NCBI GenBank assembly: GCA_050174575.1
Contig: JBFXJT010000003.1
Span: 1,689-65,688, forward strand
Reading direction: 5' to 3'
Length of the DNA: 64,000 nucleotides
Source: Bacilli bacterium
GTDB lineage: Bacteria; Bacillota_I; Bacilli_A; ML615J-28; CAG-698
The notes beneath the pieces are model-generated. The model was not told where the DNA came from. It saw nothing but the letters and a program-made list of their open reading frames with translations, and made no database searches. Position numbers and translations under genes: made by a program. Below are positions 30,031 to 61,047 of this stretch, in pieces (positions within the stretch are counted from its first letter, which is position 1; each line of letters begins with the position of its first letter).

Positions 30031-31500
30031 TCATTTATCGTAAGTTATTCCGATTTCAAAAGCCCGATTCCATGGGAAATAAGCTTTATAATTTTGTTTA
30101 AAGAATGGGTCGGACAAAACATGTAGCTCTTTTTGCAACAATTGTTTTAATTCATTGTTTGGTTTAAAATCAAACAAGTTTAAAAAATTAAGTCGCAAAT
30201 ATTCATGAACTTTTCCTCTCACGATATCTTGATAAAAACAATCATCAATAATTCGTTCTTGTAAGAACACATTTGTAAGTGCTATGTTTGGCGAAGTTTG
30301 ACTGCAATAAATTAGGGCTGTTGCAAGTAGGCTCCCAGTAGCGTTAGAAGCAGTATTCCAAGCACTATAACCTTTTAATTTTAAGAAATCAAGCTGTTTT
30401 AATAACCAAAAACAGCCGCCATTAGGTGTATGAATATCTAGCAAAAAGACAGGAGTTTTATTTTGCAGTACTTTATTTAGTTGCTCAATGAAGGAATTCG
30501 TGTTTTGGTCGGATAAGGCCTCTAATGGATGTTCGCGATCAGCGATTTCCATTTTTTGGAAGTTATCGCCTTGAAAAATTGCTAAAACAAACGATGCCTC
30601 TTGAATATCGTTCGTTCTTTGCATATGTAAAATGCTGGTCATTTTATTTAGGTTTTCTAAATAAGGACGATCTTCAAATGGAAGACAAATGTTTAATAGT
30701 TCTTCTTTTGGGTGCAACAGAAAATATTTTAATTCACGGTTTCCGATATTACTAATGATTTTTGCAAGTAAAAAAGTGGTTCCTTCATCGGTGCCGTTAT
30801 ATAACCAAGCTTTTTCTTCTAAATGGTGCTCTTTAATCTGCGCCATTAAAAGATCATGCTCCAATGTTTGCAAACCATCAGCCATTGAATCTTCTTGAAG
30901 AAGAAGCAAAAAATCAATTTCATTTTGTTGCAACATATTAATTGCTAGTTTGTTTACTTCGTGTTTTTTAATTCTTGCGATTTCATATGTTTTTAAAACA
31001 TCAACAGGGATTTTTAAACTAATTTCTTGAAACTTTTCACAGTCCTTTTGCTCATGGTATCGTAAATATTTTCCCTTATAACGGCTATACTCATTGATTA
31101 AACGCCAGTATTGTTTCGTTTTTTCATCAAATGTAGAAATGGAAGTGCGAAGAACGGTATCAAACATATAAATTTTTAGTTTTGGATTATGTTTTTTTAG
31201 TTTTTTTATTAATTGAATTTTATATTGTAATTCTTCTTTTGAAAAATTAGCACTTCTGCTTTGAATTAGTCCTCCACTAATGATACTATCTAGTGGACAA
31301 ATTAAATAATCGAGATTTCTTGCTTCTTCGTTTAAGAAGTTTTCGATGTTTTTAAAATCAAGTTTTGTATGGAGAGTCCCTAATTGGGTTTTATCCATCG
31401 TTATCAAATTGACGTTTGCTAATTTTGCTAATGTAATTGCCCAATCGTAATTACAAGGCCGACTATCTAGAGGAATTAAGCCAATATTCGTTTTCATCAT
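30031..31500 (-). CDS. Uncharacterised cytoplasmic protein, paralog A of a ~500 aa family (DUF4127-like; assignment from memory, unverified)
   Basis: Shares the N-terminal 'IGLIPLDSRPCNY' and C-terminal 'SAWNTASNATGSLLA' motifs with the paralogs at 45043 and 48483. The ATGATG start follows an AAAGGAG RBS; the track ORF is extended upstream. Confidence 0.5.
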   Translation of the reverse strand: MMKTNIGLIPLDSRPCNYDWAITLAKLANVNLITMDKTQLGTLHTKLDFKNIENFLNEEARNLDYLICPLDSIISGGLIQSRSANFSKEELQYKIQLIKKLKKHNPKLKIYMFDTVLRTSISTFDEKTKQYWRLINEYSRYKGKYLRYHEQKDCEKFQEISLKIPVDVLKTYEIARIKKHEVNKLAINMLQQNEIDFLLLLQEDSMADGLQTLEHDLLMAQIKEHHLEEKAWLYNGTDEGTTFLLAKIISNIGNRELKYFLLHPKEELLNICLPFEDRPYLENLNKMTSILHMQRTNDIQEASFVLAIFQGDNFQKMEIADREHPLEALSDQNTNSFIEQLNKVLQNKTPVFLLDIHTPNGGCFWLLKQLDFLKLKGYSAWNTASNATGSLLATALIYCSQTSPNIALTNVFLQERIIDDCFYQDIVRGKVHEYLRLNFLNLFDFKPNNELKQLLQKELHVLSDPFFKQNYKAYFPWNRAFEIGITYDK

Positions 31501-31569
31501 AAGCTCCTTTTTGTTCATATTGTAACACAGGCAATTTAAAAAGAGAATAAGAATATTTTTAAAAATCAA

Positions 31570-31598
31570 TTGACTAGACATTTAGTTGGTGCTATAAT
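31570..31598 (+). promoter_or_regulatory. Consensus sigma-A promoter (TTGACT-17-TATAAT) with an operator-like TTGACTAGACA element over the -35
   Basis: The -35 and -10 boxes are read directly. The identical 11-mer TTGACTAGACA recurs at the promoter at 50031. Confidence 0.5.
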
Positions 31599-31609: not shown

Positions 31610-31623
31610 TGTAAACGTTATCA
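31610..31623 (+). promoter_or_regulatory. Catabolite-responsive element (cre, CcpA site) just downstream of the -10
   Basis: TGTAAACGTTATCA matches the TGWAANCGNTNWCA consensus at every constrained position. It lies within a larger 8-5-8 inverted repeat AAACGTTA-tcagt-TAACGTTT (31613-31633). Confidence 0.5.
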
Positions 31624-31681
31624 GTTAACGTTTTCCGTCTACTATAGCAGTTTATCAAACTGCAAAGAAAAGGAGAAAAAG

Positions 31682-33229
31682 ATGTTTAAAAAATTAATGA
31701 TTGCCTTTTTAATGATTGCCTCGGTTTTCATGTTTGTTGGATGTACTAAAGATGACGACGTTGTTGAAAGCTTAGACAACATTAAAATTTATGGCCCGTT
31801 TGACACATTTGACCCAGAAACTGATTATGTTCATCAACTAATCAAAGATATTACTGGTGTTGATGTTGATTATGACTTTTTACCACAAGATGGCGCTTCT
31901 GCAAATACTAAACTTTATTTAGATATTGCTGGACAAGCAGAATACCATTTGATGAAACTTGCTCCTACTCAATTTGATCAACTAAGAGCTGTTGGAGCTT
32001 TACTCGATATTACTGAATTACTAAACGAATATGGAACAAATATTACAAGTTCTGTTAGTGAAGAAGTATGGAAAACAGCAACTTACGATGGAAAAATTTA
32101 CGGTGTTCCTCAAAAGAACCCATCAAACAACATCAATAGTGCTTTATTCTTAAGAAAAGACATTTTTGTTGAAAACGAGATAGCTCTTCCAACTACTTTA
32201 ACGGAATTTAAAGATGCTATGGTTGCTTTAAAAACAAAATTAGGAACTGGATTTGTTCCTTTCAGTGCTAGTTCACATAACATTGAACCAATTAGAGGCG
32301 CCTTTGGGATCGTTACTGACTGGGTTCCACAAACTGATGGCACTTTAAAATATTGGACAGAAACAGCTGCTTTCTAAGACTATGCAGATTATATGAAAGA
32401 ATTAGTTGACTTGGGAGTTATGCAAGATGGTTATTTAACAATCCCTAATTATGGTGCAAATAGCCGTGCCGGATTGCAAAACGGAACAGTTGGTGTTACA
32501 CTAGATGCATGGTGGAGTGGCAATGGTATTATCAATGGTATCGCTGCTTCAGAAGGACAAACAGAAGAATATGTAATCGAACACGCTGCTGATTACTTAC
32601 ATTTTATTGACTCTTTATTAGGTGATGCTAATTATGGTACACCAGGAAAAGGTCAAGCTAAAATGGATTATTCCGTTACTTATTTCTATGCTATTCCAAA
32701 ATATATGGAAAACACAGCCATGGCCGTTATTAAATGGATGAATGAAAAAATGGATCCAGTTAACTTCAAACGTTTAACAATTGGTGAAGAAAATGTTCAT
32801 CATACACTTGTTGATGGCAAATATTTCCCAATATTAACACCTGATACTAATGGAAAAATTCCTTTTGATTCTTTCAATAAAGGTGATTATTTCTTAACTG
32901 GTATTCGCGAAGAAGATTATTCATTATACTGGCAATGTCGAGCTCGTAAGAATCCTCGTCAACAATTTGTTTGGGAAGGAATGAATACAGAAGCACAAAA
33001 AACAAGTGTCGGAATTTATGATCGCGTTGGTCTAGCTCCAGGATTCTTAATTTATGGCGCTAATAAAACGAAATTATCACAACTTACGACTGATTACTTA
33101 GTAAGTGTCATCACAGGCCAAGGGACACAAATGACACAAACTGAATTCAATGCGAAATTAGTTGCAGAAGCACAATTAACAGAAAGCATCGCTGAAGTTA
33201 ATGCTTGGTATGCAACTCTTGGTGATTAA
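31682..33229 (+). pseudogene. LplA/YesO-type extracellular sugar-binding lipoprotein (ABC SBP family 1) interrupted by an in-frame TAA at 32375-32377
   Basis: Lipobox 'FMFVGC'. ORFs 31682-32377 and 32393-33229 are in the same frame, and the read-through translation '...YWTETAAF*DYADYMKELVDLG...' is continuous SBP sequence. Confidence 0.6.
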
Positions 33230-33250
33230 TCCGCATTCGGAGGTAAATTA

Positions 33251-33886
33251 ATGGTTAATAGAGCACTTTTTGTTATGGGGCGTTTATTTTTATTAAATGT
33301 CATATATATTCTTACGATTGCTTTTAGTGTAGGAATATTGGTTGCCCCGGCAACAAGTGCTCTTTTTTATTGTACTAAAGACTTGTTAAAAAAAGATACA
33401 CACGAGTTTGGCTTTTTCAAACAATATATTAACATCATCAAAACAAAATTCCGTTATAGTTTTTTGTTTGGACTGATTGCTTTGATTATTCTTTATCTAT
33501 GTATCGTTAATTTAGATAATGTATTATTGCTGAATTATGAACAATGGTTATTAAAAACAATTGTTGTATTTCAATATATTATTATTCTTGAAACTTCTTT
33601 AATGTTTATTATGGTTCTTTTTTTGAATGGACTGTTTGTTTTTAATAAGTTTTCTGATTTATTAAAAATGTCTTTTTTCATTTTACATCGACATATCCTA
33701 ACAACTATTTTGTTGGGTATATCCGTTATTGTTCTCATCTATGTTTTTATTTATTACATCAACGCTTTATTCTTATTATTGTTTTTTAGTATGATTAGTT
33801 TATGGGTCAATTTATTATATTGGCCTATCGTGATAAAATATATAAAAAAGGAGGAAAAACCCGAACATGAGCAAGAAACCGAATAA
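33251..33886 (+). CDS. YesL-like membrane protein (DUF624)
   Basis: The N-terminal pattern 'RLFLLNVIYILTIAFSVGILVAPATSALFY' and its size/TM layout are typical of DUF624 proteins that accompany LplABC transporters. Confidence 0.55.
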   Translation: MVNRALFVMGRLFLLNVIYILTIAFSVGILVAPATSALFYCTKDLLKKDTHEFGFFKQYINIIKTKFRYSFLFGLIALIILYLCIVNLDNVLLLNYEQWLLKTIVVFQYIIILETSLMFIMVLFLNGLFVFNKFSDLLKMSFFILHRHILTTILLGISVIVLIYVFIYYINALFLLLFFSMISLWVNLLYWPIVIKYIKKEEKPEHEQETE

Positions 33887-34805
33887 GTTATTAAAACATT
33901 TTAAACAATATGGGGCCTTGTATTTCTTCTTAATACCCGGGTTAGTTCTTGTTGCCATTTTTAACTATGTTCCTATGGCAGGAATTGTTATTGCTTTTAA
34001 GCATTATGATATTTTTGCAGGAAATACACCAATTGAATCAATCATAAAAAGTGATTGGGCGGGATTTACCCATTTCGAAGCTTTATTTAGTAATAACGAC
34101 TTCATTAATGCTTTCGAAAACACTTTAATCATAAGCACTTATAAAATTGTTTTTTTATTCCCAATACCAATTGTTTTAGCAATCATGATTACCGATATTA
34201 AAGCTCTTTGGTATAAAAAGGTTATTCAAATTGTTTTATACTTGCCACATTTTTTGTCATGGATTGTTGTTACAGCTTTGTTTATTCAAATATTAGGGCC
34301 TTACGGGGTCATCAATAATTGGTTAAAAGATTTGAACATAATTGAGCATTCACTGGCCTTTTTTGGAAATAATGATATTTTCCGTGGACTGATTGTTATT
34401 TCTGCTGGATGGAAAGAAGTAGGCTGGAATGCGATTATATATATTGCTGCCATTACGGGGATTAACCCACAATTATATGAAGCAGCAAAAATGGATGGAG
34501 CCAATAAAATTCAACAAATTTTCTATATTACAATTCCATCAATTGCTAATACAATTGTTATGTTGTTTATTTTGCGAATTGGCGCTATTTTAGATGCTGG
34601 TTTTGACCAAATTTTTAATATGTATTCCTATGTGGTATATGATAAGGGTGATATTTTGTCAACACTTGTTTACCGATCAGGTATTGGACAACAAAACTAT
34701 AGTTTTGCGACAGCAGTCGGATTATTCAATTCCGTTGTTGCGTTAATCATGGTTCTTGGAGGCAATTATTTATCACGTAAAATCTTTAAGAAAGGATTGT
34801 GGTAA
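33867..34805 (+). CDS. Sugar ABC transporter permease, LplB-like (CUT1)
   Basis: 'KHFKQYGALYFFLIPGLVLVAIFNYVPMAGIVIAFKHY' is the characteristic LplB N-terminus, and the 'EAAKMDGANKIQQIFYITIP' EAA loop is present. Confidence 0.8.
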   Translation: MSKKPNKLLKHFKQYGALYFFLIPGLVLVAIFNYVPMAGIVIAFKHYDIFAGNTPIESIIKSDWAGFTHFEALFSNNDFINAFENTLIISTYKIVFLFPIPIVLAIMITDIKALWYKKVIQIVLYLPHFLSWIVVTALFIQILGPYGVINNWLKDLNIIEHSLAFFGNNDIFRGLIVISAGWKEVGWNAIIYIAAITGINPQLYEAAKMDGANKIQQIFYITIPSIANTIVMLFILRIGAILDAGFDQIFNMYSYVVYDKGDILSTLVYRSGIGQQNYSFATAVGLFNSVVALIMVLGGNYLSRKIFKKGLW

Positions 34806-34807
34806 TT

Positions 34808-35674
34808 ATGCTTGAGTCAAGAAGCGATAAAATATTCAGCATTATTGTATATATCATTTTATCCATTTTTGGATTATCAATTATTTTGCCGTTTTTCAAT
34901 TTATTAGCGACATCCCTTTCCGATCAAGTAGCTGTTTCTAACGGTTCAGTTTCATTTTGGCCAAAAAACTTCACATTTAGTGCTTACCAATTTGTTGTGC
35001 AAAACGATCAATTTTGGAATGGATTAAAAACAACGGTCTTTGTAACATTTGTTGGAACGGCATTAGCGATGGTTGTAACAACACTTGTTGCCTATCCGCT
35101 AAGCCTTCCCAAATTTCGAGCTCGTAAAATTTTTCTAGTTATCTTTATTATTGTTATGCTTTTTAATGGAGGACTAATTCCCACATATTTACTTATTAAT
35201 CAAATCGGATTACGTAATAATCGGTGGGCGCTAATCTTGCCATCCCTCATTTCTACATACAATATGTTACTTGTGAAAAACTATTTTGAAACATTGCCAG
35301 AATCATTGTATGAGTCCGCTAAAATTGATGGGGCAACCGAATTTCAAATCTTTTTGAAAATCACGTTACCTTTATCACTACCAACACTGGCAACTGTTGC
35401 TTTGTTTTATGCCGTTGGCTTTTGGAACGCTTATGTTAGTGGTATGTTGTATATATCAACACCGAGCAAAATGCCACTGCAAACATATTTACAAACGCTT
35501 CTCAATATGGCGTATATACCGGCACACGAACTATCGCCAGAAGCAGCTGAAAGTTTGTCGACGGAATCGATTAGAGCAGCAACAATTTTTTCAGCAACAG
35601 TCCCTATTTTGATTCTTTATCCTTTCTTACAAAAATATTTTGTGAAAGGGTTAGTATTGGGGTCGGACAAATAA
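34808..35674 (+). CDS. Sugar ABC transporter permease, LplC-like (CUT1)
   Basis: EAA-loop 'ESAKIDGATEFQIFLKITLP' with 6 TM helices. Confidence 0.8.
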   Translation: MLESRSDKIFSIIVYIILSIFGLSIILPFFNLLATSLSDQVAVSNGSVSFWPKNFTFSAYQFVVQNDQFWNGLKTTVFVTFVGTALAMVVTTLVAYPLSLPKFRARKIFLVIFIIVMLFNGGLIPTYLLINQIGLRNNRWALILPSLISTYNMLLVKNYFETLPESLYESAKIDGATEFQIFLKITLPLSLPTLATVALFYAVGFWNAYVSGMLYISTPSKMPLQTYLQTLLNMAYIPAHELSPEAAESLSTESIRAATIFSATVPILILYPFLQKYFVKGLVLGSDK

Positions 35675-36096
35675 TGAAAGACCGTTTTAAAATTTTTATC
35701 TTAAGATCCTGGGTAATTGGGATGGTTGTCGTTGTGGTTTATTTCATGATGAGTTTGCAACATATTTTTATTGGACTTATTTTAGGAATTATCAATACCT
35801 TTTTGGTTGATTTATTAAGTTTAACTATCAACAAAGGTAATCAGGCTGCTTTTCCTACAGGATGGAAATTGTTTTTTAAAACCATTTTCAATATTGCTAT
35901 TGCCATCATCATTAGTTTAATTATTCGCTTAATCGATTTGCAACTATTAAAAAACAACCTTATTACTATGCCAATTGAAACATTTCGCTTTATTGCTTAT
36001 TACCAAATTATTTATTATGGATCGTTATTCGTATATAACAAAATAAAAAGATTAATTGAGAGGAACAAAAATGAAACGATTATTAAAAAGCCTTAA
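35674..36096 (+). CDS. Small membrane protein of unknown function
   Basis: 3-4 TM helices. It overlaps neighbouring genes in an operon-like arrangement. Confidence 0.35.
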   Translation: MKDRFKIFILRSWVIGMVVVVVYFMMSLQHIFIGLILGIINTFLVDLLSLTINKGNQAAFPTGWKLFFKTIFNIAIAIIISLIIRLIDLQLLKNNLITMPIETFRFIAYYQIIYYGSLFVYNKIKRLIERNKNETIIKKP

Positions 36097-36766
36097 AACT
36101 AAACCGATGACACTTGTCGTCAGTTTGCCAGAAAACACTTACGAAATGGCAAAAGCTGCTTGGGAAGCAGGCGCAGATGCCATTAAAGTGCACATCAATT
36201 TATTTCACAACGCTAGTTTAATCAAATTTGGAACGATTGAAGAGCAACGACCTGTTTTAGAAAAAATATTGCACGACTCTCCGGTTCCTGTTGGTGTCGT
36301 AGCTGGCGAAAATACAAAAGTTAGTGAAGGGGTCATCGAAGAATTAGTTCGAATGGGATTCGATTTTATATCTTTGTATGGTCATCATATGCCTGTATCG
36401 TTATGCAATCGCCAAGACGTATCAAACTTATTTGCAATTGATTATAGTTATTCAGTTGAAGAAGTAAAAACAATTACTAATTCATTCATTGCAGAAATAT
36501 TGGAGTTATCAATTCTTCCTCATGAAGAATATGGTTCTCGTCTTAATGCCCGAGATTTAAGTCGTTATTTAGCTTTTTCACAAGTATCTAATATTCCAAC
36601 ACTTTTACCAACTCAAAGATTGATTTATCCGAGCGATGTTCAAGCAATTGCTAATTGTGGCGTCAAAGCAATCATGATTGGAGCAATTGTTTTTGGTCAC
36701 GATCTTCATCAAATGGTTGAACAAATAAAGTTATTTAAACAAGCTATAAATGAATTAAAGCAGTAA
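36071..36766 (+). CDS. Hypothetical cytoplasmic protein, possibly a TIM-barrel (alpha/beta) enzyme
   Basis: Alternating beta-alpha pattern with 'AWEAGADAIKVH' and a 'VKAIMIGAIVFG' phosphate-binding-like C-terminal motif. The family is not recognised with confidence. Confidence 0.35.
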   Translation: MKRLLKSLKTKPMTLVVSLPENTYEMAKAAWEAGADAIKVHINLFHNASLIKFGTIEEQRPVLEKILHDSPVPVGVVAGENTKVSEGVIEELVRMGFDFISLYGHHMPVSLCNRQDVSNLFAIDYSYSVEEVKTITNSFIAEILELSILPHEEYGSRLNARDLSRYLAFSQVSNIPTLLPTQRLIYPSDVQAIANCGVKAIMIGAIVFGHDLHQMVEQIKLFKQAINELKQ

Positions 36767-36776
36767 GGAGTAATTT

Positions 36777-37736
36777 ATGTCACTAGCGATTCAGGCCGTT
36801 CCGATATATGATAGTAAAGCGTTTGATATACGTCGCTATATCCATCCTCCAATATATGATGGAAAAATCGATCAAGAAAAACTTCCAATTGCCCCTCCAG
36901 CATGTTTTTTAGGAGCATGGTATCGTAAAGTTTTTTCATCATTTGACAAATGGGTTGGTATTGAAGGGGTGATTGAATTAGGAGAATTTACTCCCGATGA
37001 AGCACGTTTCAATTTAGATGGTAAAGGCCGCTATATGGATGTTCCAAGTATTTATATGGGTGGAAAAAGCGCTTTTGAAAGTGATGCCGGCTTAGGTTTA
37101 GGACCAACATATTTAACTTCTGATTTTTCTTTTGAATTAACAATGGCCAGTCCTAAAATAGCTTATCGTCCTTTTTGGCGTTATATTTATCAAGATGCAA
37201 CTGATATCAACGGTAATGTCAATCGACGTGAAATCAATTCTTGGAATGTTACTGAACCTAGAAGCGTTATTTATAGTTACTTTCCTGGTGATGTTTTAAG
37301 AATGAGTGTTTATAGTCCTATTCCTGATTACTTACAATTACACATCGAAGTATTAAAAACGACGACGATTCCTAAATATGTGCAAATTAGAGAACAATAT
37401 CATTTAGAAAATAATCGTCCCGATGATTTTTTCAGCCCAATCTTTTTATCAAAAGGTCATGGGAAAAATGATGCAGAATTTAAAAGAGTGAATGCTATTG
37501 ATCAATTTGGGAATGAAGGATTTCATGCAAAACCAACCAAAGCTGAAGTTTCAAAAGCTACTTGGCACGAAACATATTTATATCGGATGATTAATAACGA
37601 AGTTAGACGTATTCCATTTTCGAAAGCTAGGCAAACAAGTATGATTTGCCCAAACAATGATGCCGTTTCTGTTATCGACATTGATCCAGAAATTGGCAGC
37701 GAAGCAATAATCATTCATCCGGGGAAAATAAAATAG
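36777..37736 (+). CDS. Unknown-family cytoplasmic protein, 319 aa, paralog A
   Basis: ~45-50% identical to the 44071-45030 product. Shared blocks are 'FLGAWYRKVFSSFD.W.G.EGVI.LGEFTPD..RFNLDGKGRYMD.PSIYMGGKSA', 'AYRPFWRYIY..ATD..GNV.R.EINSWNV' and 'RQTSMICPN.DA'. It has no signal peptide and an AAGGAG RBS. Confidence 0.5.
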   Translation: MSLAIQAVPIYDSKAFDIRRYIHPPIYDGKIDQEKLPIAPPACFLGAWYRKVFSSFDKWVGIEGVIELGEFTPDEARFNLDGKGRYMDVPSIYMGGKSAFESDAGLGLGPTYLTSDFSFELTMASPKIAYRPFWRYIYQDATDINGNVNRREINSWNVTEPRSVIYSYFPGDVLRMSVYSPIPDYLQLHIEVLKTTTIPKYVQIREQYHLENNRPDDFFSPIFLSKGHGKNDAEFKRVNAIDQFGNEGFHAKPTKAEVSKATWHETYLYRMINNEVRRIPFSKARQTSMICPNNDAVSVIDIDPEIGSEAIIIHPGKIK

Positions 37737-37745
37737 GGGGTAAAG

Positions 37746-39449
37746 ATGAATTTTAATGAAACTACTTATATTTGTAAAAACGTATATTCCATTGATGGAA
37801 TATTAAAGTTTGATGGGAAAATCCCCGTTGATATCAATGGGCGTACAGTCACTTATAAAATGTATAGTAATTTCCATGAATTGCTTGATAAAAACATTTT
37901 TGAAGTGAACAATCATGGTCTTTTGTTTTACGTTCATTACGATGAAAATATTAAAGAGGATGGCTATTATTTAAACATTACTACTGAAAATAAAATCATC
38001 ATTAAAGCATCGAATATACGAGGAATCCGTTATGCCTTTAAAATGCTTAACGATTTAGCAAGAAAATCCAATGATGGGTTTTTATTACCCATTGTTTTAA
38101 TCGAAGACGAACCTTCATTCCCTATAAGAGGAATCGTCGAAGGTTATTATGGAGAACCTTGGACGTTAGATGAGCATTTAGATATGGCTGATTTTATGGA
38201 TCAATTTCGTTTAAATGCTTTTATGTACGCGCCAAAAACTGATCAATATCATCGTGAGAAATGGTTTGAATTATATCCGGATGATCTTTTTCAACAATTG
38301 TTAACAATAAAAAACAAGTTAGCAAGCAAGGATATCGATTTTTATTATTGTATCTCACCAGGTCATGCAAAAAATCCAGAAGATGGATTTCAATATGCGA
38401 AGGATGCTGATTTTGACCGTTTATTTATAAAACTTAAACAAGTTATTGATGTTGGTGTCAATCATTTCGGATTATTTTTTGATGATATTGATTATCAATT
38501 AAGTGGAGATAACTTACAACTTTTTAAACGCCCAGGAATTGCCCATGCCCATATTTGCAATAAAGTAATGGACTTTTTAAGAGAGAATGTAATTGACCCA
38601 GTTCTTGTTATGTGTCCAACAGAATATCATCAAATTGGCGCAACAGAATACCGTAATGATTTAAAACAAAATTTAGATGAAGATATTGTTGTTTTCTGGA
38701 CGGGAGACCGCGTTTGTGCAGAAGCTATTACAGAAAATGATGCTAAACAAACAGCAGAAGCTTATGAAAAACCAATTTTTATTTGGGATAATTTCCCTGT
38801 CAGCGATTTTACATACGGCGTGAGAGAATTTATTGCGCCAATTAAAAACAGAGCTGCCAATTTAAGTGATTATGCTTTGGGTTATTTAATTAATCCAAGC
38901 TTGCATTATCATATTTCAAAAATCGGAATGATTACTATGGCTCACTATGCATGGAATTGTCAACACTATGATTATGTGAAATCATATTCCATCGCATTAA
39001 ACAGCGTCAGCCATGAATTTGCAACTTTAGGGGAAGCATACTTCGAATATAATTATCCGAACGTTCTTTCTCATGGGAATTTAGCCTTAGAAAAGCAAAT
39101 GGTAGAAAATCATGATTATTCTGCAATTTTAGCTTATATGGAAAAAGTATCAAAGAGCGCAACGCAACTACTTACCATCAATGAGCCGATTATTGATGAA
39201 CTAAAACCATGGTTATTAAGAGTTATTGATGAAGAAAAAATCATCAAACAAATCATTGATGGAGAACTAAACAAAAAAACATTACTTACTTTCTTGCAAA
39301 ATATCAAATTTTCAGGTGGAAAAATCCTTGATTATTTGATTGCTGACAAAAAATTATTGACCGATGAAGAGTTTACTAATTTGCTTTCTAAACGACGAGG
39401 CGGAGAATGGTATCGTGTGTTTGAATACAAACGCTGGCCAAAGCACTAG
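37746..39449 (+). CDS. GH84-family beta-N-acetylglucosaminidase (O-GlcNAcase/NagJ-like), cytoplasmic
   Basis: 'FPIRGIVEGYYGEPWTLDEHLDMADFMDQFRLNAFMYAPKTDQYHREKW' matches the GH84 catalytic-domain N-terminus, and the catalytic Asp-Asp sits in 'FGLFFDDIDY'. It has no signal peptide. Confidence 0.8.
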   Translation: MNFNETTYICKNVYSIDGILKFDGKIPVDINGRTVTYKMYSNFHELLDKNIFEVNNHGLLFYVHYDENIKEDGYYLNITTENKIIIKASNIRGIRYAFKMLNDLARKSNDGFLLPIVLIEDEPSFPIRGIVEGYYGEPWTLDEHLDMADFMDQFRLNAFMYAPKTDQYHREKWFELYPDDLFQQLLTIKNKLASKDIDFYYCISPGHAKNPEDGFQYAKDADFDRLFIKLKQVIDVGVNHFGLFFDDIDYQLSGDNLQLFKRPGIAHAHICNKVMDFLRENVIDPVLVMCPTEYHQIGATEYRNDLKQNLDEDIVVFWTGDRVCAEAITENDAKQTAEAYEKPIFIWDNFPVSDFTYGVREFIAPIKNRAANLSDYALGYLINPSLHYHISKIGMITMAHYAWNCQHYDYVKSYSIALNSVSHEFATLGEAYFEYNYPNVLSHGNLALEKQMVENHDYSAILAYMEKVSKSATQLLTINEPIIDELKPWLLRVIDEEKIIKQIIDGELNKKTLLTFLQNIKFSGGKILDYLIADKKLLTDEEFTNLLSKRRGGEWYRVFEYKRWPKH

Positions 39450-39461
39450 GAAGGATTAGTG

Positions 39462-40127
39462 ATGATTGAACAATTAAAAAACAAATTGATAGTTTCATGT
39501 CAAGCAAAAGATAATGAACCTTTAAAAGACCCCCAAATTATGGCGAAAATGGCTGCTGCAGCATTACTTGGTGGTGCTGGTGGCATTAGGGCGGCAGGAG
39601 TTAACGATATTAAAGCAATTAAAGCCATGAATGAAACCATTGTTATTGGACTAATTAAAAAAGACTATTCGGATTCTGAAGTATACATTACACCTACTAA
39701 ACAAGAAGTTTTCCAATTGTTGGAAAGTGGTTGTGAGATTATTGCTTTAGATGGTACGAATCGCAATCGGCCCAACAAAGAAACATTATTCAGTTTAATT
39801 TCATTAATTCATGCCAATAACCGTTTAGCTATGGCTGATATTTCCACATTTGAAGAAGCTTTATTAGCCCAACAAGCTGGAGCAGATATGGTTTCCACAA
39901 CGCTTTCTGGTTATACAAGTTATACAAAGAAACGCCAGGGACCCGATATAAAGCTTGTCGGACAATGTGTTTCAAAACTGCAAATTCCTGTGCTTGCGGA
40001 AGGAAGGATTAGAAATCCTCAAGATTTAAAGAAAGTTTTACGAAAAAAACCGTTTGCTGTTGTTATTGGAACAGCAATAACACGTCCAACCGAAATTACT
40101 AAAACTTTCGTAGGGTGTTTTAAATGA
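39462..40127 (+). CDS. nanE: N-acetylmannosamine-6-phosphate 2-epimerase
   Basis: Collinear with E. coli NanE in 'LIVSCQA', 'IIALDGTNRNRP', 'TTLSGYT', 'AEGRIRNPQ' and 'VVIGTAITRP'. Confidence 0.85.
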   Translation: MIEQLKNKLIVSCQAKDNEPLKDPQIMAKMAAAALLGGAGGIRAAGVNDIKAIKAMNETIVIGLIKKDYSDSEVYITPTKQEVFQLLESGCEIIALDGTNRNRPNKETLFSLISLIHANNRLAMADISTFEEALLAQQAGADMVSTTLSGYTSYTKKRQGPDIKLVGQCVSKLQIPVLAEGRIRNPQDLKKVLRKKPFAVVIGTAITRPTEITKTFVGCFK

Positions 40128-41767
40128 ACAGAAAAACGATCAACGAATCTTATAAAGATATTCTAAGCAATTGGAATAATGAATTTTCCCATAATTATCC
40201 GATTACGGAACGATTATTCAAAGAAAAAATTCTTGATTCGCTAGAAATTGTTGCCGATGGTTCATACTCCTTATATGACAAAGAGGAATATATTGGCAGT
40301 GTTATTTTAAAATTTAATCATATTAATGATAAAAAATTGCAAGACTACGCTTATATTTCGTTTATTTTTGTGGCTTCAAAATTTCGAAATCGAGGATACG
40401 GTTCTGTTTTGATAAGTGATGCGCTTAGAATATGTATTGAATATGAAAAAAGCATGTTATATGTAGGTGGTGATAACGATTGCTTGTTTTCCGGTGTTTT
40501 TTTAGATAATAATGAATTTGTTCACCAATTTTTTAAAGAACATCGTTTTAATATTGCTTACAAAAATTATAATTTGATTTGTAAAGAACCACCAAAAACA
40601 ACAAACGACGAATACAAATATACGACGTTAAAGACTGAAAAAGAAAAAAAGGACTTATTAAAGCAAGTTCATAAATTATTTCCTTCAAGATGGCATTATG
40701 ATTTGCAAAGCTGTGAACCAAAAGCTTTTTTTGTTGCGAAAGAAAATGATAATATTGTTGGGGTTGTTCGTTTAAATACGCCTAAATCAAATCACATCGC
40801 CAACAGTGTTAATACTTATCCGTTATACAAAATGCTTGGAGGAATTGGCCCCGTTGCCATCTTCCCCGAAAAAAAGGGTTCGGAATTAGCCAACAACATC
40901 GTCAAACAAGCAGTCAACTATTTGTTCAACTTGGGATGCTCCGAAGTTATTGTCGATTGGACCAATTTTATTGATTACTTTAAAGCTTCGGGATTTTCGG
41001 ATATCTCTAATTCCTATGTTCTCTATGAATTGCGTGTTCAAGAAAAAATCAAAGGGCCAAAAACACATATTTATCAGGTTATCGAAAATGATTTACGACA
41101 TGACATTTTAGAAGGTAAATATAAACATGGAGATATTATTCCTAGTGAAGTGGAATTAGCTTCTACATATAAAGTAACGAGGATGACAGTTAGACAAGCT
41201 ATCAACAACTTGTTAATCGATGGATTTATATATCGTCATAAGGGACGCGGCACGTTTGTAACATATAATAAAAGAAATATTGATTTTGAAGACAAACCTT
41301 ATTTTTCATTTAACAATGATAAGGCAAATAATAATGAATTACGAACGACTGTTTTAATTTTTGAAATCAGGGCAGCAGATGAATTACTCGCTCTGCGATT
41401 ACAACTAAAAACAGGTGATCCGCTTTATTATGTTGAACGGGTTGTTTCCTATGATAATTTACCATTATTGTTTGAAAGATTATATTTACCAGCAAACATG
41501 TATGCCAATTTAAATGAAAAAATATTTGAAAAATCATTTTATCAATATGCGAAAGAGCAGTTGCACTGGAATTTAGTTTCATGCAACATCAATATAGAAG
41601 CAAGAGGTCTAAGTGGACGGGCTGCAGAAGTCTTACAATTATCCCAAGGCGATCCAGCGCTTTATTGCAGTAGTGTAGCTCACTTGGTCAATGGTAGAGC
41701 AATCTTGTATACTAGAACTTTTTTCAATGCGGAACAAGTAAATTTTTCCCATCAATTTTCTTTTTAA
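40124..41767 (+). CDS. Fusion protein: two N-terminal GNAT acetyltransferase-like domains plus a C-terminal GntR/HutC-family regulator (HTH + UTRA)
   Basis: GNAT motif A 'FIFVASKFRNRGYGSVLISDAL' is at ~aa 80-100, and a second GNAT-like region spans ~aa 190-300. The GntR HTH 'SEVELASTYKVTRMTVRQAINNLLIDGFIYRHKGRGTFV' is at ~aa 330-370, and a UTRA-type C-terminal domain follows. Confidence 0.7.
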   Translation: MNRKTINESYKDILSNWNNEFSHNYPITERLFKEKILDSLEIVADGSYSLYDKEEYIGSVILKFNHINDKKLQDYAYISFIFVASKFRNRGYGSVLISDALRICIEYEKSMLYVGGDNDCLFSGVFLDNNEFVHQFFKEHRFNIAYKNYNLICKEPPKTTNDEYKYTTLKTEKEKKDLLKQVHKLFPSRWHYDLQSCEPKAFFVAKENDNIVGVVRLNTPKSNHIANSVNTYPLYKMLGGIGPVAIFPEKKGSELANNIVKQAVNYLFNLGCSEVIVDWTNFIDYFKASGFSDISNSYVLYELRVQEKIKGPKTHIYQVIENDLRHDILEGKYKHGDIIPSEVELASTYKVTRMTVRQAINNLLIDGFIYRHKGRGTFVTYNKRNIDFEDKPYFSFNNDKANNNELRTTVLIFEIRAADELLALRLQLKTGDPLYYVERVVSYDNLPLLFERLYLPANMYANLNEKIFEKSFYQYAKEQLHWNLVSCNINIEARGLSGRAAEVLQLSQGDPALYCSSVAHLVNGRAILYTRTFFNAEQVNFSHQFSF

Positions 41768-41770
41768 TAT

Positions 41771-41795
41771 CAGTGCCATTTTTTGGCACTTTTTA
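41771..41795 (+). terminator. Terminator after the GNAT-GntR gene
   Basis: AGTGCCA-tttttt-GGCACT is followed by TTTTAATTT. Confidence 0.5.
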
Positions 41796-41797
41796 AT

Positions 41798-41809
41798 TTG
41801 TATATACAA
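41798..41809. promoter_or_regulatory. Perfect 12-bp palindrome TTGTATATACAA (GntR-family GT-N-TA-N-AC operator type) in the promoter region of the GHL10 gene
   Basis: Read directly. It lies ~17-28 nt upstream of a TATAAT at 41826-41831. Confidence 0.4.
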
Positions 41810-41854
41810 GTTGGTTATTAAATGTTATAATTAAGAAAAAAAGGAAATGACACA

Positions 41855-44074
41855 ATGAGGAAAATTCTTATGGCTTTTTTATTAACATCACTCGCAGCAA
41901 ACATTTTTGTTAATGCTGAACAAACAACGATTGTCGACGATTATTTAAATGGAAAAGACATCGTTCGTTACGAAAACTACTTAGTTTATTATAGTTTTAA
42001 TTCATCCTTGAAATCTCCTGCAAATCAATGGGGGTATGAAATTGCAGTGAGCCCGGACCATTTTGTAATTGATTGCGATACCAATGCAACCATGGAAGAA
42101 GGAGGTTACATTATTTCTGGTCATGGAACGAAAAAAACAATCCTTTTGGATGTCAATGTTGGCGATCAAGTAAATATCGATTGGGGAACTAAAAAAATTA
42201 TCATTACTAGAGATCCCCTAAAAAGTCCGCAGTTTTTAGCACACCGCTTTAAACAAACGGCAATTGATTATTACAATCAAGCTACAAAATACGGTTATGC
42301 TTTTGATTCTATCCTTGTTAATCAACTGATTGATCTGATTGACAAGGACTGTGATTTAATCGATGAGATTGCTATCAAAAGCGAGCCAACAAGTGATGAT
42401 TTAAATCAAGTAAAATTGTTAGCCGAAAACATCGAGACGCGGGCTTTAACAATCAAATTTCTTACTTCTTATTCTTCAAAAACGGAGATTCGAGCTTTGT
42501 GGCATCGGCCAAATGCAGCAGGGTTAAAAGAGGATAATTTAGACAATTTAAAAGCTTTCGTACAAGAAGTTAAAGATTTAGGGTTTAATACAATTTTTGT
42601 AGAAACATTGTGGAATGGATATGTTAGCTATCGATCAGATATCATCAGCACACACCCACAAGTAGCTGGTTTTACATATGGTGAAGTTTACCAAAACGAT
42701 TATATCGCAGCATTAATTGGCGAAAGCAAAAAACTAGGGATTGATGTTCATGCTTGGTGTCATACCTTCAATGCTGGAAATGTTACTTATAAAGCGGCAT
42801 CAATCAAAGATGAATGGTTACTAGAAAATTACCAAGGCTTAACATTGCACCCTAACACTTACGGTGGGAGTTATTATTTGGATCCATCAAATCCTGAAGT
42901 ATTAACTTACTTAACCAGTGTCTTTTTAGAAATGGTTGAGAAGTATGACTTTGCAGGTATCCAATTAGATTACATTCGTTATTATGATAACAACTATTCA
43001 CAAACGCCCATTAGAGATAGTGGTTACGGATTGCTTCCGGAAAATCGCTTTAAAGAAGCTTATGAATTAACCGGTGATGTCCGTGAACTCATCAAACAGG
43101 AAACAAATTTAGAAAAATGGAACAAATGGCGACAAGACAATGTCACTAACGCCGTCAAAACATTTTCACAAGCTTTACGAAATAAAAATCCCGAAATTGT
43201 CATCTCTGCTGATGTTGTTGCCAATATTACTTATGCAAAAGCAACATACATGCAAGATTGGAAAACATGGGTTGATAAAGGGTATATTGATTTACTTTGC
43301 CCAATGATTTATACAGGAAGTGCCGAAGCAATTAAAGAAGATTCTTTAGCTATTATGAACCAAATAAAAAATTTAGCCTTTTTATCTTCAGGTATTGCAC
43401 CGATTTATTATGGATATTCTGTAGAAATTAACCACGATGAATTTGAAGCAACGAAAAGTGCTGATGGCTTAGCCTTTTTTGCAAGTCAAAATATTGTTGG
43501 GTTACAAGAAGTTTCACAATCAATAAAAACAGGGGTATTTCGATTAGAAGCTACATCCCCACTTCAGAAAACGTCAATTGTTATTGAAAATGGATTGCAA
43601 CATTTAAAAGAATACGTAACTATGGCAATGGTAAATGAACCGCAACAACAAATGTTCCTTGACCATATAAACACGATGAGTGCCATGGATTGCAATAATC
43701 CATCTGATTATCAAAGCCTAATGGAAAAAATGGATTTTGTAAGAACAATATCTCCATATGTTATTTCCAATGACATTAGAGAAATTTTCAACTTGGAATT
43801 GGAACAATTAATTCATGTATTAGACGTCAAGATTAGCCGGGAAATGATTACTTTAGGTTTTTATGACCCCAGTGATGGAAGTCGACCAGACCCTGATTTA
43901 TTTGATTATCCTGTTGATGAACCCGAACCTGAACCAGAACCAGAACCTGAGCCAGAGCCTGAACCAGAACCCACTGACGAAAAAGGATGCTTGAATTTTT
44001 TTACAGCACCTTCAATAATATTCTTCGGATTGATACTTATGTTATTTAGAAAAAAAGAAAGAGGTAATATATGA
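41855..44074 (+). CDS. Secreted glycoside-hydrolase-like protein (GHL10/YngK-YddW-like TIM barrel) with a (Pro-Glu)n linker and a C-terminal membrane anchor
   Basis: Carries a signal peptide. The central region 'GFNTIFVETLWNGYVSYRS...' with 'DVHAWCHTFN' and 'GIQLDYIRY' resembles the DUF187/GHL10 family, though this assignment is unverified. The C-terminus is 'PEPEPEPEPEPEPEPTDEKGCLNFFTAPSIIFFGLILMLFRKKERGNI'. Confidence 0.6.
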   Translation: MRKILMAFLLTSLAANIFVNAEQTTIVDDYLNGKDIVRYENYLVYYSFNSSLKSPANQWGYEIAVSPDHFVIDCDTNATMEEGGYIISGHGTKKTILLDVNVGDQVNIDWGTKKIIITRDPLKSPQFLAHRFKQTAIDYYNQATKYGYAFDSILVNQLIDLIDKDCDLIDEIAIKSEPTSDDLNQVKLLAENIETRALTIKFLTSYSSKTEIRALWHRPNAAGLKEDNLDNLKAFVQEVKDLGFNTIFVETLWNGYVSYRSDIISTHPQVAGFTYGEVYQNDYIAALIGESKKLGIDVHAWCHTFNAGNVTYKAASIKDEWLLENYQGLTLHPNTYGGSYYLDPSNPEVLTYLTSVFLEMVEKYDFAGIQLDYIRYYDNNYSQTPIRDSGYGLLPENRFKEAYELTGDVRELIKQETNLEKWNKWRQDNVTNAVKTFSQALRNKNPEIVISADVVANITYAKATYMQDWKTWVDKGYIDLLCPMIYTGSAEAIKEDSLAIMNQIKNLAFLSSGIAPIYYGYSVEINHDEFEATKSADGLAFFASQNIVGLQEVSQSIKTGVFRLEATSPLQKTSIVIENGLQHLKEYVTMAMVNEPQQQMFLDHINTMSAMDCNNPSDYQSLMEKMDFVRTISPYVISNDIREIFNLELEQLIHVLDVKISREMITLGFYDPSDGSRPDPDLFDYPVDEPEPEPEPEPEPEPEPEPTDEKGCLNFFTAPSIIFFGLILMLFRKKERGNI
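43918..43974 (+). repeat. In-frame hexanucleotide microsatellite (GAR-CCN)x9 encoding the (Glu-Pro)9 linker
   Basis: 'gaacccgaacctgaaccagaaccagaacctgagccagagcctgaaccagaaccc' is read directly. Confidence 0.8.
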
Positions 44075-45030
44075 GTTTAGCAATTAATGTTATTCCAACA
44101 TTGGATAGTCAATTTATAGACAGCCGAAAATTTCAAAACGCAAAAATATTTTATGGAAATATTGAAAACGAGGTAAAACCAATTTTGGCTCCAAAATGTT
44201 TTCTTGGAGCGTGGTATCGCAAAGTTTTTTCATCCTTTGATTATTGGTTAGGGATGGAAGGGGTTATAAAATTAGGTGAATTTACCCCTGATAAGCTTCG
44301 CTTCAACCTTGATGGTAAAGGTCGTTATATGGATAACCCATCAATTTATATGGGAGGGAAAAGCGCCAAAGAAACTGATGCTGGCTTAAACCTCAATTTA
44401 AGTTATCTATCAGATGATACTAAAGACGACTTAGTTCTTTCTTCTCCAAAGCTAGCTTATCGACCATTTTGGCGTTATATTTACAATACTGCGACTGATG
44501 TATCAGGGAATGTTGAACGCCATGAAATTAATTCTTGGAACGTTCATAATCCTAGACATTTAGGAAATTATTATTTTCCCGGCGATGTTATCAAAATGAG
44601 CGTTTATAGTCCGATGAAAGACTACTTACAACTACGTATTGATGTTATTGAACCGACAACAAACCCAAAATATGTGAAAATAAGAAATGGATACAATTTA
44701 GAAAATAATCTTCCCACTTCATTTTTAAGTCCTTTATTTTTTTCTAAAGGACATGGTTATGAAAAAGCCGAATTTAAACGTGTAAATTCCATTGATCAAT
44801 ATGGTAACGAAGGCTTTGTAGCACAAAATACCAATGCCGAAGTATCGGAAGCTGTTTGGCAAGAGGTCTATTTGTACAAAGAAATCGACAAAACAATTTA
44901 CAAAATTCCTTTCTTACAAAGTCGCCAGACATCAATGATTTGCCCAAACACAGATGCTATTACTGTGAAAAATCATCCAGTTGATCCCACTGGAGAATCA
45001 GTTATCATTCATCCAGGAAAAAGGAATTAA
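44071..45030 (+). CDS. Unknown-family cytoplasmic protein, 319 aa, paralog B
   Basis: Paralog of the 36777-37736 product with the same conserved blocks. Its start overlaps the upstream stop as ATGA. Confidence 0.5.
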   Translation: MSLAINVIPTLDSQFIDSRKFQNAKIFYGNIENEVKPILAPKCFLGAWYRKVFSSFDYWLGMEGVIKLGEFTPDKLRFNLDGKGRYMDNPSIYMGGKSAKETDAGLNLNLSYLSDDTKDDLVLSSPKLAYRPFWRYIYNTATDVSGNVERHEINSWNVHNPRHLGNYYFPGDVIKMSVYSPMKDYLQLRIDVIEPTTNPKYVKIRNGYNLENNLPTSFLSPLFFSKGHGYEKAEFKRVNSIDQYGNEGFVAQNTNAEVSEAVWQEVYLYKEIDKTIYKIPFLQSRQTSMICPNTDAITVKNHPVDPTGESVIIHPGKRN

Positions 45031-45042
45031 AAGGCCGAACTT

Positions 45043-46545
45043 ATGAAAAAAATAGTTTATATTCCCCTTGATGAACGACCTTGCAACTATGATTTTCCTA
45101 ACGAGATTTTTCAAAATTCCCAAACAAATATTGTCATTCCCCCAATCAATATTATGGGAGACAAAAAAATGCCGGCTAACCATAATGCTTTAGAAGCTTT
45201 TCTCTTAAAAGAGACAAAGGATGCCGACGGTTTAGTCATTTCTTTAGACACACTAATTTATGGTGGGATTGTTCCTTCTCGTTTACATTATTTAGATGTT
45301 AGCGTATTAAAAGAGCGATTATTATTTATTGAGCAGATTAAAAAACAAACGCCAAAATTACCTATTTTTGCTTTCCAATTAATCATGCGTTGTCCCCAAA
45401 ATAATTCAAGCGATGAAGAACCAGAATATTACAAGCATTCTGGAAGAAGCATTTATTTAAATGGTTATTATCAAAACAAAAAACAATTAGGCATTATTAC
45501 CGAAGAAGAAGAAAAACATTGGAAAACATTGTCAATTGAAGATACCTATTTAAATGATTTTTTACAAAGACGATTTACAAATAAACAAATTAATATTTTT
45601 GCTCTCAATTTGCTTGAGAAAGAGATGATTGACTTTTTGGTTGTTCCTCAAGATGATGCGAGCGAATATGGGTATACAGCGATAGATCAAGTAGATATTA
45701 GAGAAATCATCCGTCAAAAGCAACTGATGTTAAAAGCATATATGTATCCAGGAGCCGATGAAGTCGGATGTATCTTATTGAGTCGTATGATTAACCATTT
45801 AGAAAATAAAAAGCCTGCTTTTTTTGTTAAGTATCCATCACCAACAACACCAATGGTGATTCCTTGTTTAGAGGATCGCTATGTCGATGTAACCATTAAA
45901 TATCATATTGCTTGTACGGGTGGAATTACTGTTCCTTCTTTAGCAGATGCAGACATTGTTTTACTAGCTTTCCTTGGAGCAACTAAAATGATTTCTCATC
46001 CAAACAATGAACCAAGTTTGGATGTTGATGTCATGTGTAACTTTACGGAAATGATGGAGTTTGCGGATTATGCAATCAAAAAGGGATATCCCGTTGCTAT
46101 TGGTGATTTAGTTTACCTTAATGGTGGTTCGCTAGATATCTTACATTTTTTAGAAGCAAAGCAACTAACAATGAAAGTTGCATCGTATGCTGGATGGAAT
46201 ACATCAAGTAATTCTTTAGGAACAGCCATTGCTCAAGCGATTCAGTTTTGGTACCAAGGAAATACTTTGTCACATCAAGCTTTCTTGATTAAACGCTATG
46301 TGGAAGACGTGGGCTATTGTGGAATTGTTCGAGCTGATGTTACAAAAGAACTTGCAAAACATCAAATGGATTATTTTAATGTTAATGAAAAAGATGGTAT
46401 TGCTGCCAAACTCGTCAATCATGGATTGCAAAAATTCATCCATGAACATTTAACAAGTATCAGTCACCAATTTACCGTTACAAAAGTAAACTTACCTTGG
46501 AAGCGGATGTTTGAAGTCGCTTTTGAAGTTCATTTGAAGGATTGA
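45043..46545 (+). CDS. Uncharacterised cytoplasmic protein, paralog B of the ~500 aa DUF4127-like family
   Basis: Carries the N-terminal 'KIVYIPLDERPCNYDFP', 'DTLIYGGIVPSRLH', 'QLIMRCPQ', 'FLVVPQDD', 'YMYPGADE' and 'AGWNTSSNSLGTAIAQA' motifs, all shared with paralog C. Confidence 0.5.
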   Translation: MKKIVYIPLDERPCNYDFPNEIFQNSQTNIVIPPINIMGDKKMPANHNALEAFLLKETKDADGLVISLDTLIYGGIVPSRLHYLDVSVLKERLLFIEQIKKQTPKLPIFAFQLIMRCPQNNSSDEEPEYYKHSGRSIYLNGYYQNKKQLGIITEEEEKHWKTLSIEDTYLNDFLQRRFTNKQINIFALNLLEKEMIDFLVVPQDDASEYGYTAIDQVDIREIIRQKQLMLKAYMYPGADEVGCILLSRMINHLENKKPAFFVKYPSPTTPMVIPCLEDRYVDVTIKYHIACTGGITVPSLADADIVLLAFLGATKMISHPNNEPSLDVDVMCNFTEMMEFADYAIKKGYPVAIGDLVYLNGGSLDILHFLEAKQLTMKVASYAGWNTSSNSLGTAIAQAIQFWYQGNTLSHQAFLIKRYVEDVGYCGIVRADVTKELAKHQMDYFNVNEKDGIAAKLVNHGLQKFIHEHLTSISHQFTVTKVNLPWKRMFEVAFEVHLKD

Positions 46546-46546
46546 T

Positions 46547-50012: not shown

Positions 50013-50030
50013 ACCTTTACAAACTCTTCT

Positions 50031-50059
50031 TGACTAGACAAGTAATTAAAGATATAATA
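50031..50059 (+). promoter_or_regulatory. Consensus sigma-A promoter (TTGACT-17-TATAAT) carrying the same TTGACTAGACA element as the 31570 promoter
   Basis: Read directly. It is followed by an AAGGAGG RBS and the ATG at 50089. Confidence 0.5.
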
Positions 50060-50088
50060 GAGTTATCATTAGACAAAGGAGGAAACTA

Positions 50089-61038: not shown

Positions 61039-61047
61039 GAGGGACTT

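Follow-up and report, generated by a model that had tools for sequence, protein, structure and literature searches.

A candidate HutC-type operator shared by three operon promoters of an amino-sugar and glycan gene island in an uncultured member of the Bacilli

Operators of the GntR/HutC type reportedly consist of an inverted repeat with a GT-N-TA-N-AC core, a description attributed to Rigali et al. in 2002. The HutC subfamily includes the amino-sugar repressors NagR (YvoA) of Bacillus subtilis and DasR of Streptomyces coelicolor. In the NagR-DNA complex, Arg38 reads the G at -5, Arg48 reads the G at -4 and the wing reaches the minor groove at -7 through Gly69; the idealised NagR site is GTGGTCTAGACCAC, and the natural sites are non-palindromic, yet are bound with picomolar affinity (PMC4333415). 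A single G is predicted where only the Arg48 equivalent is retained (PMC4918961). In Bacillus thuringiensis the NagR dre sites contain CTAGACAACT and CTATACAACT halves, with chiA (ATACATCTAGACAACT) and nagP (ACACATCTATACAACT) as examples (PMC6141813). A further member of this group of operators is the TreR box at the Bacillus trehalose promoter PtreA, which has the sequence TTGTATATACAA and is paired with a cre for CcpA (PMC11356801).

Here we compare with these systems a gene island contained in a 64,000-nt stretch of DNA (the window, meaning the whole stretch that was analysed). Gene content was determined by Pfam scans and is organized into three co-directional operons, each preceded by a predicted promoter that overlaps a short, imperfectly palindromic site. 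We propose that the three sites, O1 to O3, are operators of the island's own GntR/HutC-type repressor, a reading based on sequence comparison to which we assign a probability of about 0.8.

Operons, promoters and candidate operators in the window

The features on which the analysis is based are the following, all on the plus strand.

31570-31583, plus strand: predicted operator O1, TTGACTAGACATTT, the left half of which doubles as the -35 hexamer of P1
31570-31598, plus strand: predicted promoter P1, TTGACT (31570-31575), 17 nt, TATAAT (31593-31598), with a TG upstream of the -10 and 11 of 12 consensus positions
31610-31623, plus strand: predicted cre site TGTAAACGTTATCA, located in the 5' leader of P1 with its centre near +13
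31682-41767, plus strand: P1 operon, encoding a solute-binding protein (SBP), DUF624, two ABC permeases, three proteins without a family, a GH84-like beta-N-acetylglucosaminidase, NanE and a GNAT2-HutC regulator
40124-41767, plus strand: regulator gene, last in the P1 operon; 547 aa with two GNAT domains, a GntR winged helix-turn-helix (PF00392) and a UTRA domain (PF07702), HutC subfamily
41772-41790, plus strand: intrinsic terminator that closes the P1 operon immediately 5' of O2; a hairpin is also present at orthologous loci
41798-41811, plus strand: predicted operator O2, TTGTATATACAAGT, the right half of which is the -35-like TATACA of P2
41803-41831, plus strand: predicted promoter P2, TATACA (41803-41808), 17 nt, TATAAT, with a TGn extended -10 and 10 of 12 consensus positions
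41855-50012, plus strand: P2 operon, encoding GHL10, a 319-aa protein of unknown function, DUF4127, a NAGPA-like phosphodiester glycosidase and a second DUF4127
50008-50021, plus strand: cre-like palindrome TGTAAACCTTTACA, 8 nt 5' of the P3 -35, with CC rather than CG at its centre and one mismatch
50030-50043, plus strand: predicted operator O3, TTGACTAGACAAGT, the left half of which doubles as the -35 hexamer of P3
50030-50058, plus strand: predicted promoter P3, TTGACT (50030-50035), 17 nt, TATAAT (50053-50058), as read in the sequence
50089 to beyond 64000, plus strand: P3 operon, encoding a 1794-aa lipoprotein (with a GH85-like segment), DUF624, a 964-aa SBP, two permeases, NHL/TPR, Yip1 and DUF5696

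Promoters P1, P2 and P3 all combine near-consensus -35 and -10 hexamers with 17-nt spacers and are predicted to be of the sigma-A type. The -35 of P2 (TATACA) is weaker than those of P1 and P3, and the register of the P2 palindrome is shifted by 5 nt relative to these two promoters. The candidate operator overlaps the -35 region at all three. An initial annotation of this DNA had described an 11-mer common to two TTGACT-17 nt-TATAAT promoters and a palindrome of the GT-N-TA-N-AC type at the promoter of the GHL10 gene. The 11-mer, TTGACTAGACA, is present in exactly two copies in the window (31570-31580 and 50030-50040, both on the plus strand) and opens such a promoter at each site; both promoters are as described, apart from the placement of the second at 50031-50059, which is off by one and corrected here to 50030-50058. 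The palindrome is equally confirmed: TTGTATATACAA occurs once in the window, as a perfect 12-bp palindrome at 41798-41809 within O2, and its core, GT-A-TA-T-AC, agrees with the GntR/HutC consensus. At O1 and O3 the right half is canonical (TA-G-AC) and the left half, GA-C-TA, has one deviation from GT-N-TA. Since the left half is TTGAC and not the symmetric TTGTC, the same bases make a consensus -35.

The 11-mer and the palindrome had been treated as alternatives, a distinction that does not survive comparison with orthologous promoters. Hybrid sites occur there (TTGACTATACATTT at P1 in lineage L010 and TTGACTATACAAGT at P3 in lineages L004 and L009), which makes the two motifs one: both are variants of a single predicted 14-bp operator, TTG(A/T)(C/A)TA(G/T)ACA(A/T)(G/T)T, which is imperfectly palindromic. 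The earlier suggestion of a regulon across the whole island is supported by sequence comparison, in that sites of this kind front all three operons, and the predicted regulon extends beyond the end of the window.

The part of the P3 operon that lies past the window is accessible through two further loci, L027, which overlaps window positions 60149-64000 exactly, and L028, from the same sample as the window, in which the gene order is aBig_2, GNAT2, HutC (P0084) and GxDLY. The operon appears to comprise some 19 genes, if not more, packed with hardly any intergenic space, in the order giant lipoprotein, three sets of ABC components, NHL/TPR, Yip1, DUF5696, aBig_2, GNAT2, HutC, GxDLY/GDSL esterase and DUF4127. 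An FAD oxidoreductase is additionally present in relatives, and the gene order is kept in many Izemoplasmatales-like MAGs (L020, L024 and L025 among the loci).

Other observations concern individual genes and leaders of the island. The first SBP gene (31682-33229) has an in-frame TAA at 32375-32377, a codon that reads CAA (Gln) in the orthologue from L008. Uninterrupted orthologues of this gene encode 505-514 aa; the TAA is either a nonsense mutation (pseudogene) or a MAG assembly error. The divergent DUF4127 gene (30031-31500, minus strand) starts at 31500 and not at 31581 as in the open reading frame list. A conserved extended -10 element, TGTTACAAT, at 31519-31527 on the minus strand is its probable promoter, with a very short leader. 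Because this likely promoter lies about 45 nt from O1, we do not claim control of the divergent gene by O1. The P3 leader (50059-50091, GTTATCATTAGACAAAGGAGGAAACTAATG) is unusually conserved in five lineages, well past the ribosome-binding site. Within it, CATTAGAC (about 50068-50075) was considered as a second half-site and dropped, as L011 and L008 do not share its key C. An Rfam scan of the window returned no family, and no riboswitch or leader RNA found in this way explains the conserved leaders.

The fused regulator and its unfused paralogue

A regulator with a GntR helix-turn-helix and a UTRA domain is encoded together with the candidate target genes, and no further DNA-binding regulator was found among the window open reading frames scanned. 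The solved structure closest to this protein is B. subtilis NagR/YvoA (E = 7e-24). Assignment to the NCBIfam equivalogs LSA1692, PhnF, TreR and HutC was also considered and rejected, all of these scoring below cut-off.

A search with the HutC part of the protein identified many stand-alone GntR+UTRA proteins with 45-59% identity in Bacilli, Izemoplasmatales and Tenericutes MAGs. Wherever double-GNAT homologues stand alone, a HutC gene always comes directly after them (L012, L013, L015, L017 and L028 among the loci), and this neighbourhood of GNAT2 and HutC elsewhere indicates that the window protein is a fusion of two genes. Full-length fused regulators are found in a few lineages only, with identities to that of the window of 83, 74, 73, 61 and 58%. 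The split GNAT2 and HutC pairs are located deep in a long operon, the start of which matches the P3 operon of the window. Such a pair is also carried by the window's own contig, and its unfused HutC protein, P0084 (MGD9604778.1), is encoded approximately 9 kb past the window end. The accession of P0084 is 19 numbers after that of the fusion (MGD9604759.1) on this 90,345-nt contig, which agrees with the gene count of 19 genes downstream. Both fused and split copies are present in the ADurb.BinA124 MAG as well. P0084 and the HutC part of the fusion are 59% identical, the GNAT parts only 34%, and the two regulators have an identical recognition helix (TRMTVRQAINNL) and an identical wing (YRHKGRGTFVT).

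The residues expected to read DNA correspond with the form of the operator. Residues of the helix-turn-helix and the wing are invariant among the fused orthologues, parallel to the invariant operator. Every aligned relative retains the equivalents of NagR Arg48 and Gly69, and the Arg38 position is occupied by Val (window, L011, L003 and L008), by Ser (L004) or by Thr (L012 and L013 and, in pairwise alignment, L023 and P0084). Replacement of the Arg38 equivalent together with retention of Arg48 fits a half-site with one G, TTG rather than TGG. In the effector pocket, the NagR contacts Ser88, Phe89, Arg133, Glu145 and Ser165 are kept in every aligned sequence, and Tyr167 is missing only from that of L008; at the positions of Arg135, Glu222 and Tyr228 the aligned regulators have other residues. 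Judged from these residues, a sugar or phosphosugar effector is plausible.

The most likely operator binder is the GNAT2-HutC fusion, and P0084 probably binds the operators also; because the DNA-reading segments of P0084 are identical, either paralogue or both may be the binder. The initial annotation had named the GNAT-GntR fusion as a plausible binder of these sites. The HutC type of the sites and the presence of an island-encoded regulator are consistent with that proposal, which has to be widened in that P0084 is equally a candidate and the L023 locus, as sampled, has an unfused HutC only.

It is conceivable that only the unfused P0084 binds the operators, and that the fusion has a different role or is no longer the island repressor. 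This would be in keeping with the position of P0084 on the same contig 19 genes downstream, with the recognition helix and wing common to both proteins, and with L023, where the same operators occur with an unfused HutC and without GNAT2. We nevertheless regard it as unlikely, since the helix-turn-helix and wing of the fusion have remained invariant across orthologues that are 58-83% identical, which points to maintained DNA binding, and O1 fronts the operon of the fusion itself in every lineage.

Conservation and specificity of the operator

Orthologous promoters were compared in ungapped alignments anchored on TTG, using seven lineages with fused regulators that are 58-83% identical. The mean pairwise identity of the operator 14-mer was 0.98 at P1, 1.00 at P2 and 0.96 at P3, against 0.53, 0.39 and 0.58, respectively, for the remaining 47 promoter columns, so that the operator stands above the local background at all three orthologous promoters; at P1 and P3 the -35 hexamer accounts for some of this conservation. 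The TGnTATAAT element showed a pairwise identity of 0.80-0.97 and is in register at P2 in all lineages. The operator forms were distributed as follows.

P1: TTGACTAGACATTT in six lineages; TTGACTATACATTT in L010 (G8 to T)
P2: TTGTATATACAAGT in six of the six lineages containing the region
P3: TTGACTAGACAAGT in the window, L011 and L008; TTGACTATACAAGT in L004/L005 and L009

The flanks ACATTT at P1 and ACAAGT at P2 and P3 are strictly conserved. In L003 and L007 the transporter genes have been lost, and O1 and P1 are retained before the next gene. As a side observation, L007 and L010 carry this Bacilli-type island and are titled 'uncultured Bacteroidales bacterium', which is probably a result of mis-binning or mislabelling.

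An eighth lineage, L023, is a metagenome locus of 31% GC in which NanE is followed by an unfused HutC gene with no adjoining GNAT2; this HutC protein is 53% identical to that of the window. Two operator-bearing promoters with 17-nt spacers are present: TTGACTAGACATTT-(9 nt)-TATAAT before a big-SBP operon, and TTGACTAGACAAGT-(9 nt)-TATAAT before an orthologue (53% identical) of the window gene at 36056-36766. Because these sites precede different genes, the operator tracks the HutC clade and not the downstream gene or the GNAT fusion, and it accompanies this clade in eight lineages and three gene architectures. No site of at least 15 bits was found at the loci of the unfused relatives (L012-L020, L024 and L025). 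This result carries no information, as these loci were sampled with 10-kb flanks and their operons start farther upstream than that, within the giant gene or past it.

This distribution bears on the question of whether a HutC regulator encoded at another place in the genome, for instance a genuine orthologue of NagR or TreR, binds O1 to O3 while the island regulators use different sites. The identity of the 12-mer with the TreR box and the resemblance of the operator halves to NagR dre sites would allow such an arrangement. It is made improbable by the association of the operator with the island's HutC clade over eight lineages and three architectures, by the fact that no alternative conserved palindrome is evident at P1-P3 and by the absence of NagR-type GG half-sites.

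Still less probable is that no regulator is involved and that the conserved block reflects promoter architecture (the -35 with adjacent spacer) or the residue of a duplicated promoter. TTGACT is indeed a -35 hexamer, and the geometry of P1 and P3 is identical. However, at P1 the 8 nt following the -35 hexamer are invariant save for one G-to-T change, and the next 6 nt, up to the TG of the -10, vary freely, a pattern that argues against a conserved spacer as such. We know of no sigma-A element described at -29 to -22. In addition, P2 has the palindrome without a TTGACT -35 and in a register shifted by 5 nt, and the sequences flanking P1 and P3 are without similarity to each other.

Counts within the window alone do not make a persuasive case, and the argument rests on the comparative data. 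The exact 11-mer TTGACTAGACA was observed twice against 0.04 expected, a post hoc figure in that the 11-mer was picked for repeating; with one mismatch allowed, the two observed copies compare with 0.85 expected, which is not significant alone, and the 6 copies of the 8-base core TTGNNTANACA are no more than chance would give (4.8 expected). We constructed a position weight matrix with a training set of orthologous loci only, leaving out the window. Applied to the 64-kb window, this matrix identified exactly three sites of at least 18 bits (18.3-23.2), where 0.05 are expected, and none of 300 shuffles had three or more. The next-best score in the window after O1-O3 was 9.5 bits, and across some 0.5 Mb of DNA, part of it redundant, the top score off the named promoter sites was 12.1 bits. 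The idea that AT-rich words recur here by chance, which the relaxed core at its chance level and the rough estimate that 64 kb of DNA at 34% GC commonly contains repeated 11-mers might suggest, is effectively refuted by the cross-lineage conservation and the matrix specificity, which together with the -35 register identify the sites as more than chance.

Proposed regulation and comparison with known systems

Candidate sites for catabolite control accompany two of the operators. The predicted cre at 31610-31623 is the only perfect match to TGWAANCGNTNWCA in the window and, of the six lineages with an SBP operon, five have kept it, namely L011, L008 (12/14), L010, L004 and L009. The cre-like palindrome 5' of P3 is kept in five lineages with symmetric changes, appearing as TGTAAACCTTT(A/T)CA or TGAAAACCTTTTCA in L008, L011, L004 and L009, with TGAAAACCTTTTCA being the L011 form. 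The palindrome shares bases with the stop codon of the DUF4127 gene that precedes it, and may serve CcpA as a weak or atypical site or else serve a different LacI-type regulator. The P1 cre is located within a longer inverted repeat (31610-31633, AAACGTTA-N5-TAACGTTT) that has no Rfam match, and similar leader repeats are seen in L011 (GTAAACG...CGTTTAC) and L008 (CGTTAT..TATAACG). The repeat in the P1 leader might represent either a hairpin in the RNA or a further site overlapping the first.

We infer binding, repression, effector and transcription start positions as follows. A repressor dimer would place one winged-helix head on each TTG...CAA half-site, with the Arg48-equivalent arginine reading the lone G there and the wing lying in the flanking minor groove. 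Taking the transcription start as approximately 7 nt after the -10, the operator would span roughly -35 to -22 at P1 and P3 (centre about -29.5) and -40 to -27 at P2 (centre about -34.5). Operators so placed lie within the core promoter, and repression by occlusion of sigma-A RNA polymerase is the expected consequence. An amino-sugar-derived effector, probably a phosphosugar such as ManNAc-6-P or GlcNAc-6-P, would act on the UTRA domain and release the repressor. The fusion gene would belong to the P1 operon and the P0084 gene presumably to the P3 operon, and since each regulator gene would be inside an operator-fronted operon, the circuit is predicted to be autoregulated. The cre in the P1 leader and the cre-like site 5' of P3 may add catabolite control.

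A more speculative extension, which we think improbable, is that the double-GNAT module provides an enzymatic or acetyl-CoA/amino-sugar-sensing input that gates DNA binding. Two sensor-repressors would then share one operator set in a 'trigger-enzyme'-like two-input circuit, and the ACATTT and ACAAGT flanks could tune which paralogue is dominant at each promoter.

The proposed mechanism is conventional, with occlusion of the -35 by a repressor and cre-type catabolite control; an ordinary kind of switch would link many genes of unknown function in one regulon. In these uncultured, Izemoplasmatales-like Bacilli the operator defines a predicted regulon with no fewer than 25 members, and ties three DUF4127 proteins, DUF5696, DUF624, GHL10 and several proteins without a family to GH84/GH85-like hexosaminidases, NanE and two or three ABC importers. 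Families with no known function thereby gain a testable context in amino-sugar and glycan catabolism. The island also offers a natural case of the HutC specificity rule, in which the Arg38 equivalent and one half-site G are both lost, and it presents a GNAT2 and HutC pair in split and fused form within one genome. The literature that was searched contained nothing on DUF4127 or on GNAT-HutC fusions, and comparison was made with the HutC-family systems introduced above.

The TreR box is identical to the 12-bp palindrome of O2 at 41798-41809, and PtreA combines a HutC-family operator and a cre at one promoter, an arrangement mirrored by the pairing on the island. The regulators and targets differ. 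The window regulator scores only 103-106 bits against the TIGR02404 cut-off of 212, and TreR regulates treP/treA, whereas O2 fronts genes for GHL10, DUF4127 and a NAGPA-like protein, and the island targets are glycan and amino-sugar genes.

NagR and DasR are, like the proposed island repressor, HutC-subfamily repressors of amino-sugar genes. The NagR gene is the last of its own regulated operon (nagA-nagB-nagR), as is the fusion gene in the P1 operon, and the natural NagR operators, like those found here, are palindromic only imperfectly, around a core of CTAGAC or CTATAC. The right half of the B. thuringiensis dre sites (CTAGACAA(G/C)T or CTATACAA(G/C)T) is almost the same as that of the island operator, and G and T alternate at the same position; these dre sites are strongly asymmetric, however, and the island operator has TTG/CAA in both halves. 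NagR half-sites contain the GG (-5, -4) read by Arg38 and Arg48, in contrast to the TTG/CAA with its one G on the island. With only 26% identity over the HutC part, the window regulator does not qualify as an orthologue of B. subtilis NagR. It lacks Arg135, one of a pair of arginines that bind phosphate in NagR, as well as the sugar contacts Glu222 and Tyr228, and, unlike NagR, it has two GNAT domains fused N-terminally. The dre/NagR likeness of the 11-mer proposed in the initial annotation is thus borne out as a resemblance to Bacillus dre sites and fails for a strict dre, for which the GG doublet and Arg38 are missing, although the site would act in the manner of a NagR/DasR dre. On their sequence, the island sites are best filed as belonging to the HutC-operator kind, as neither a TreR box system nor a strict dre.
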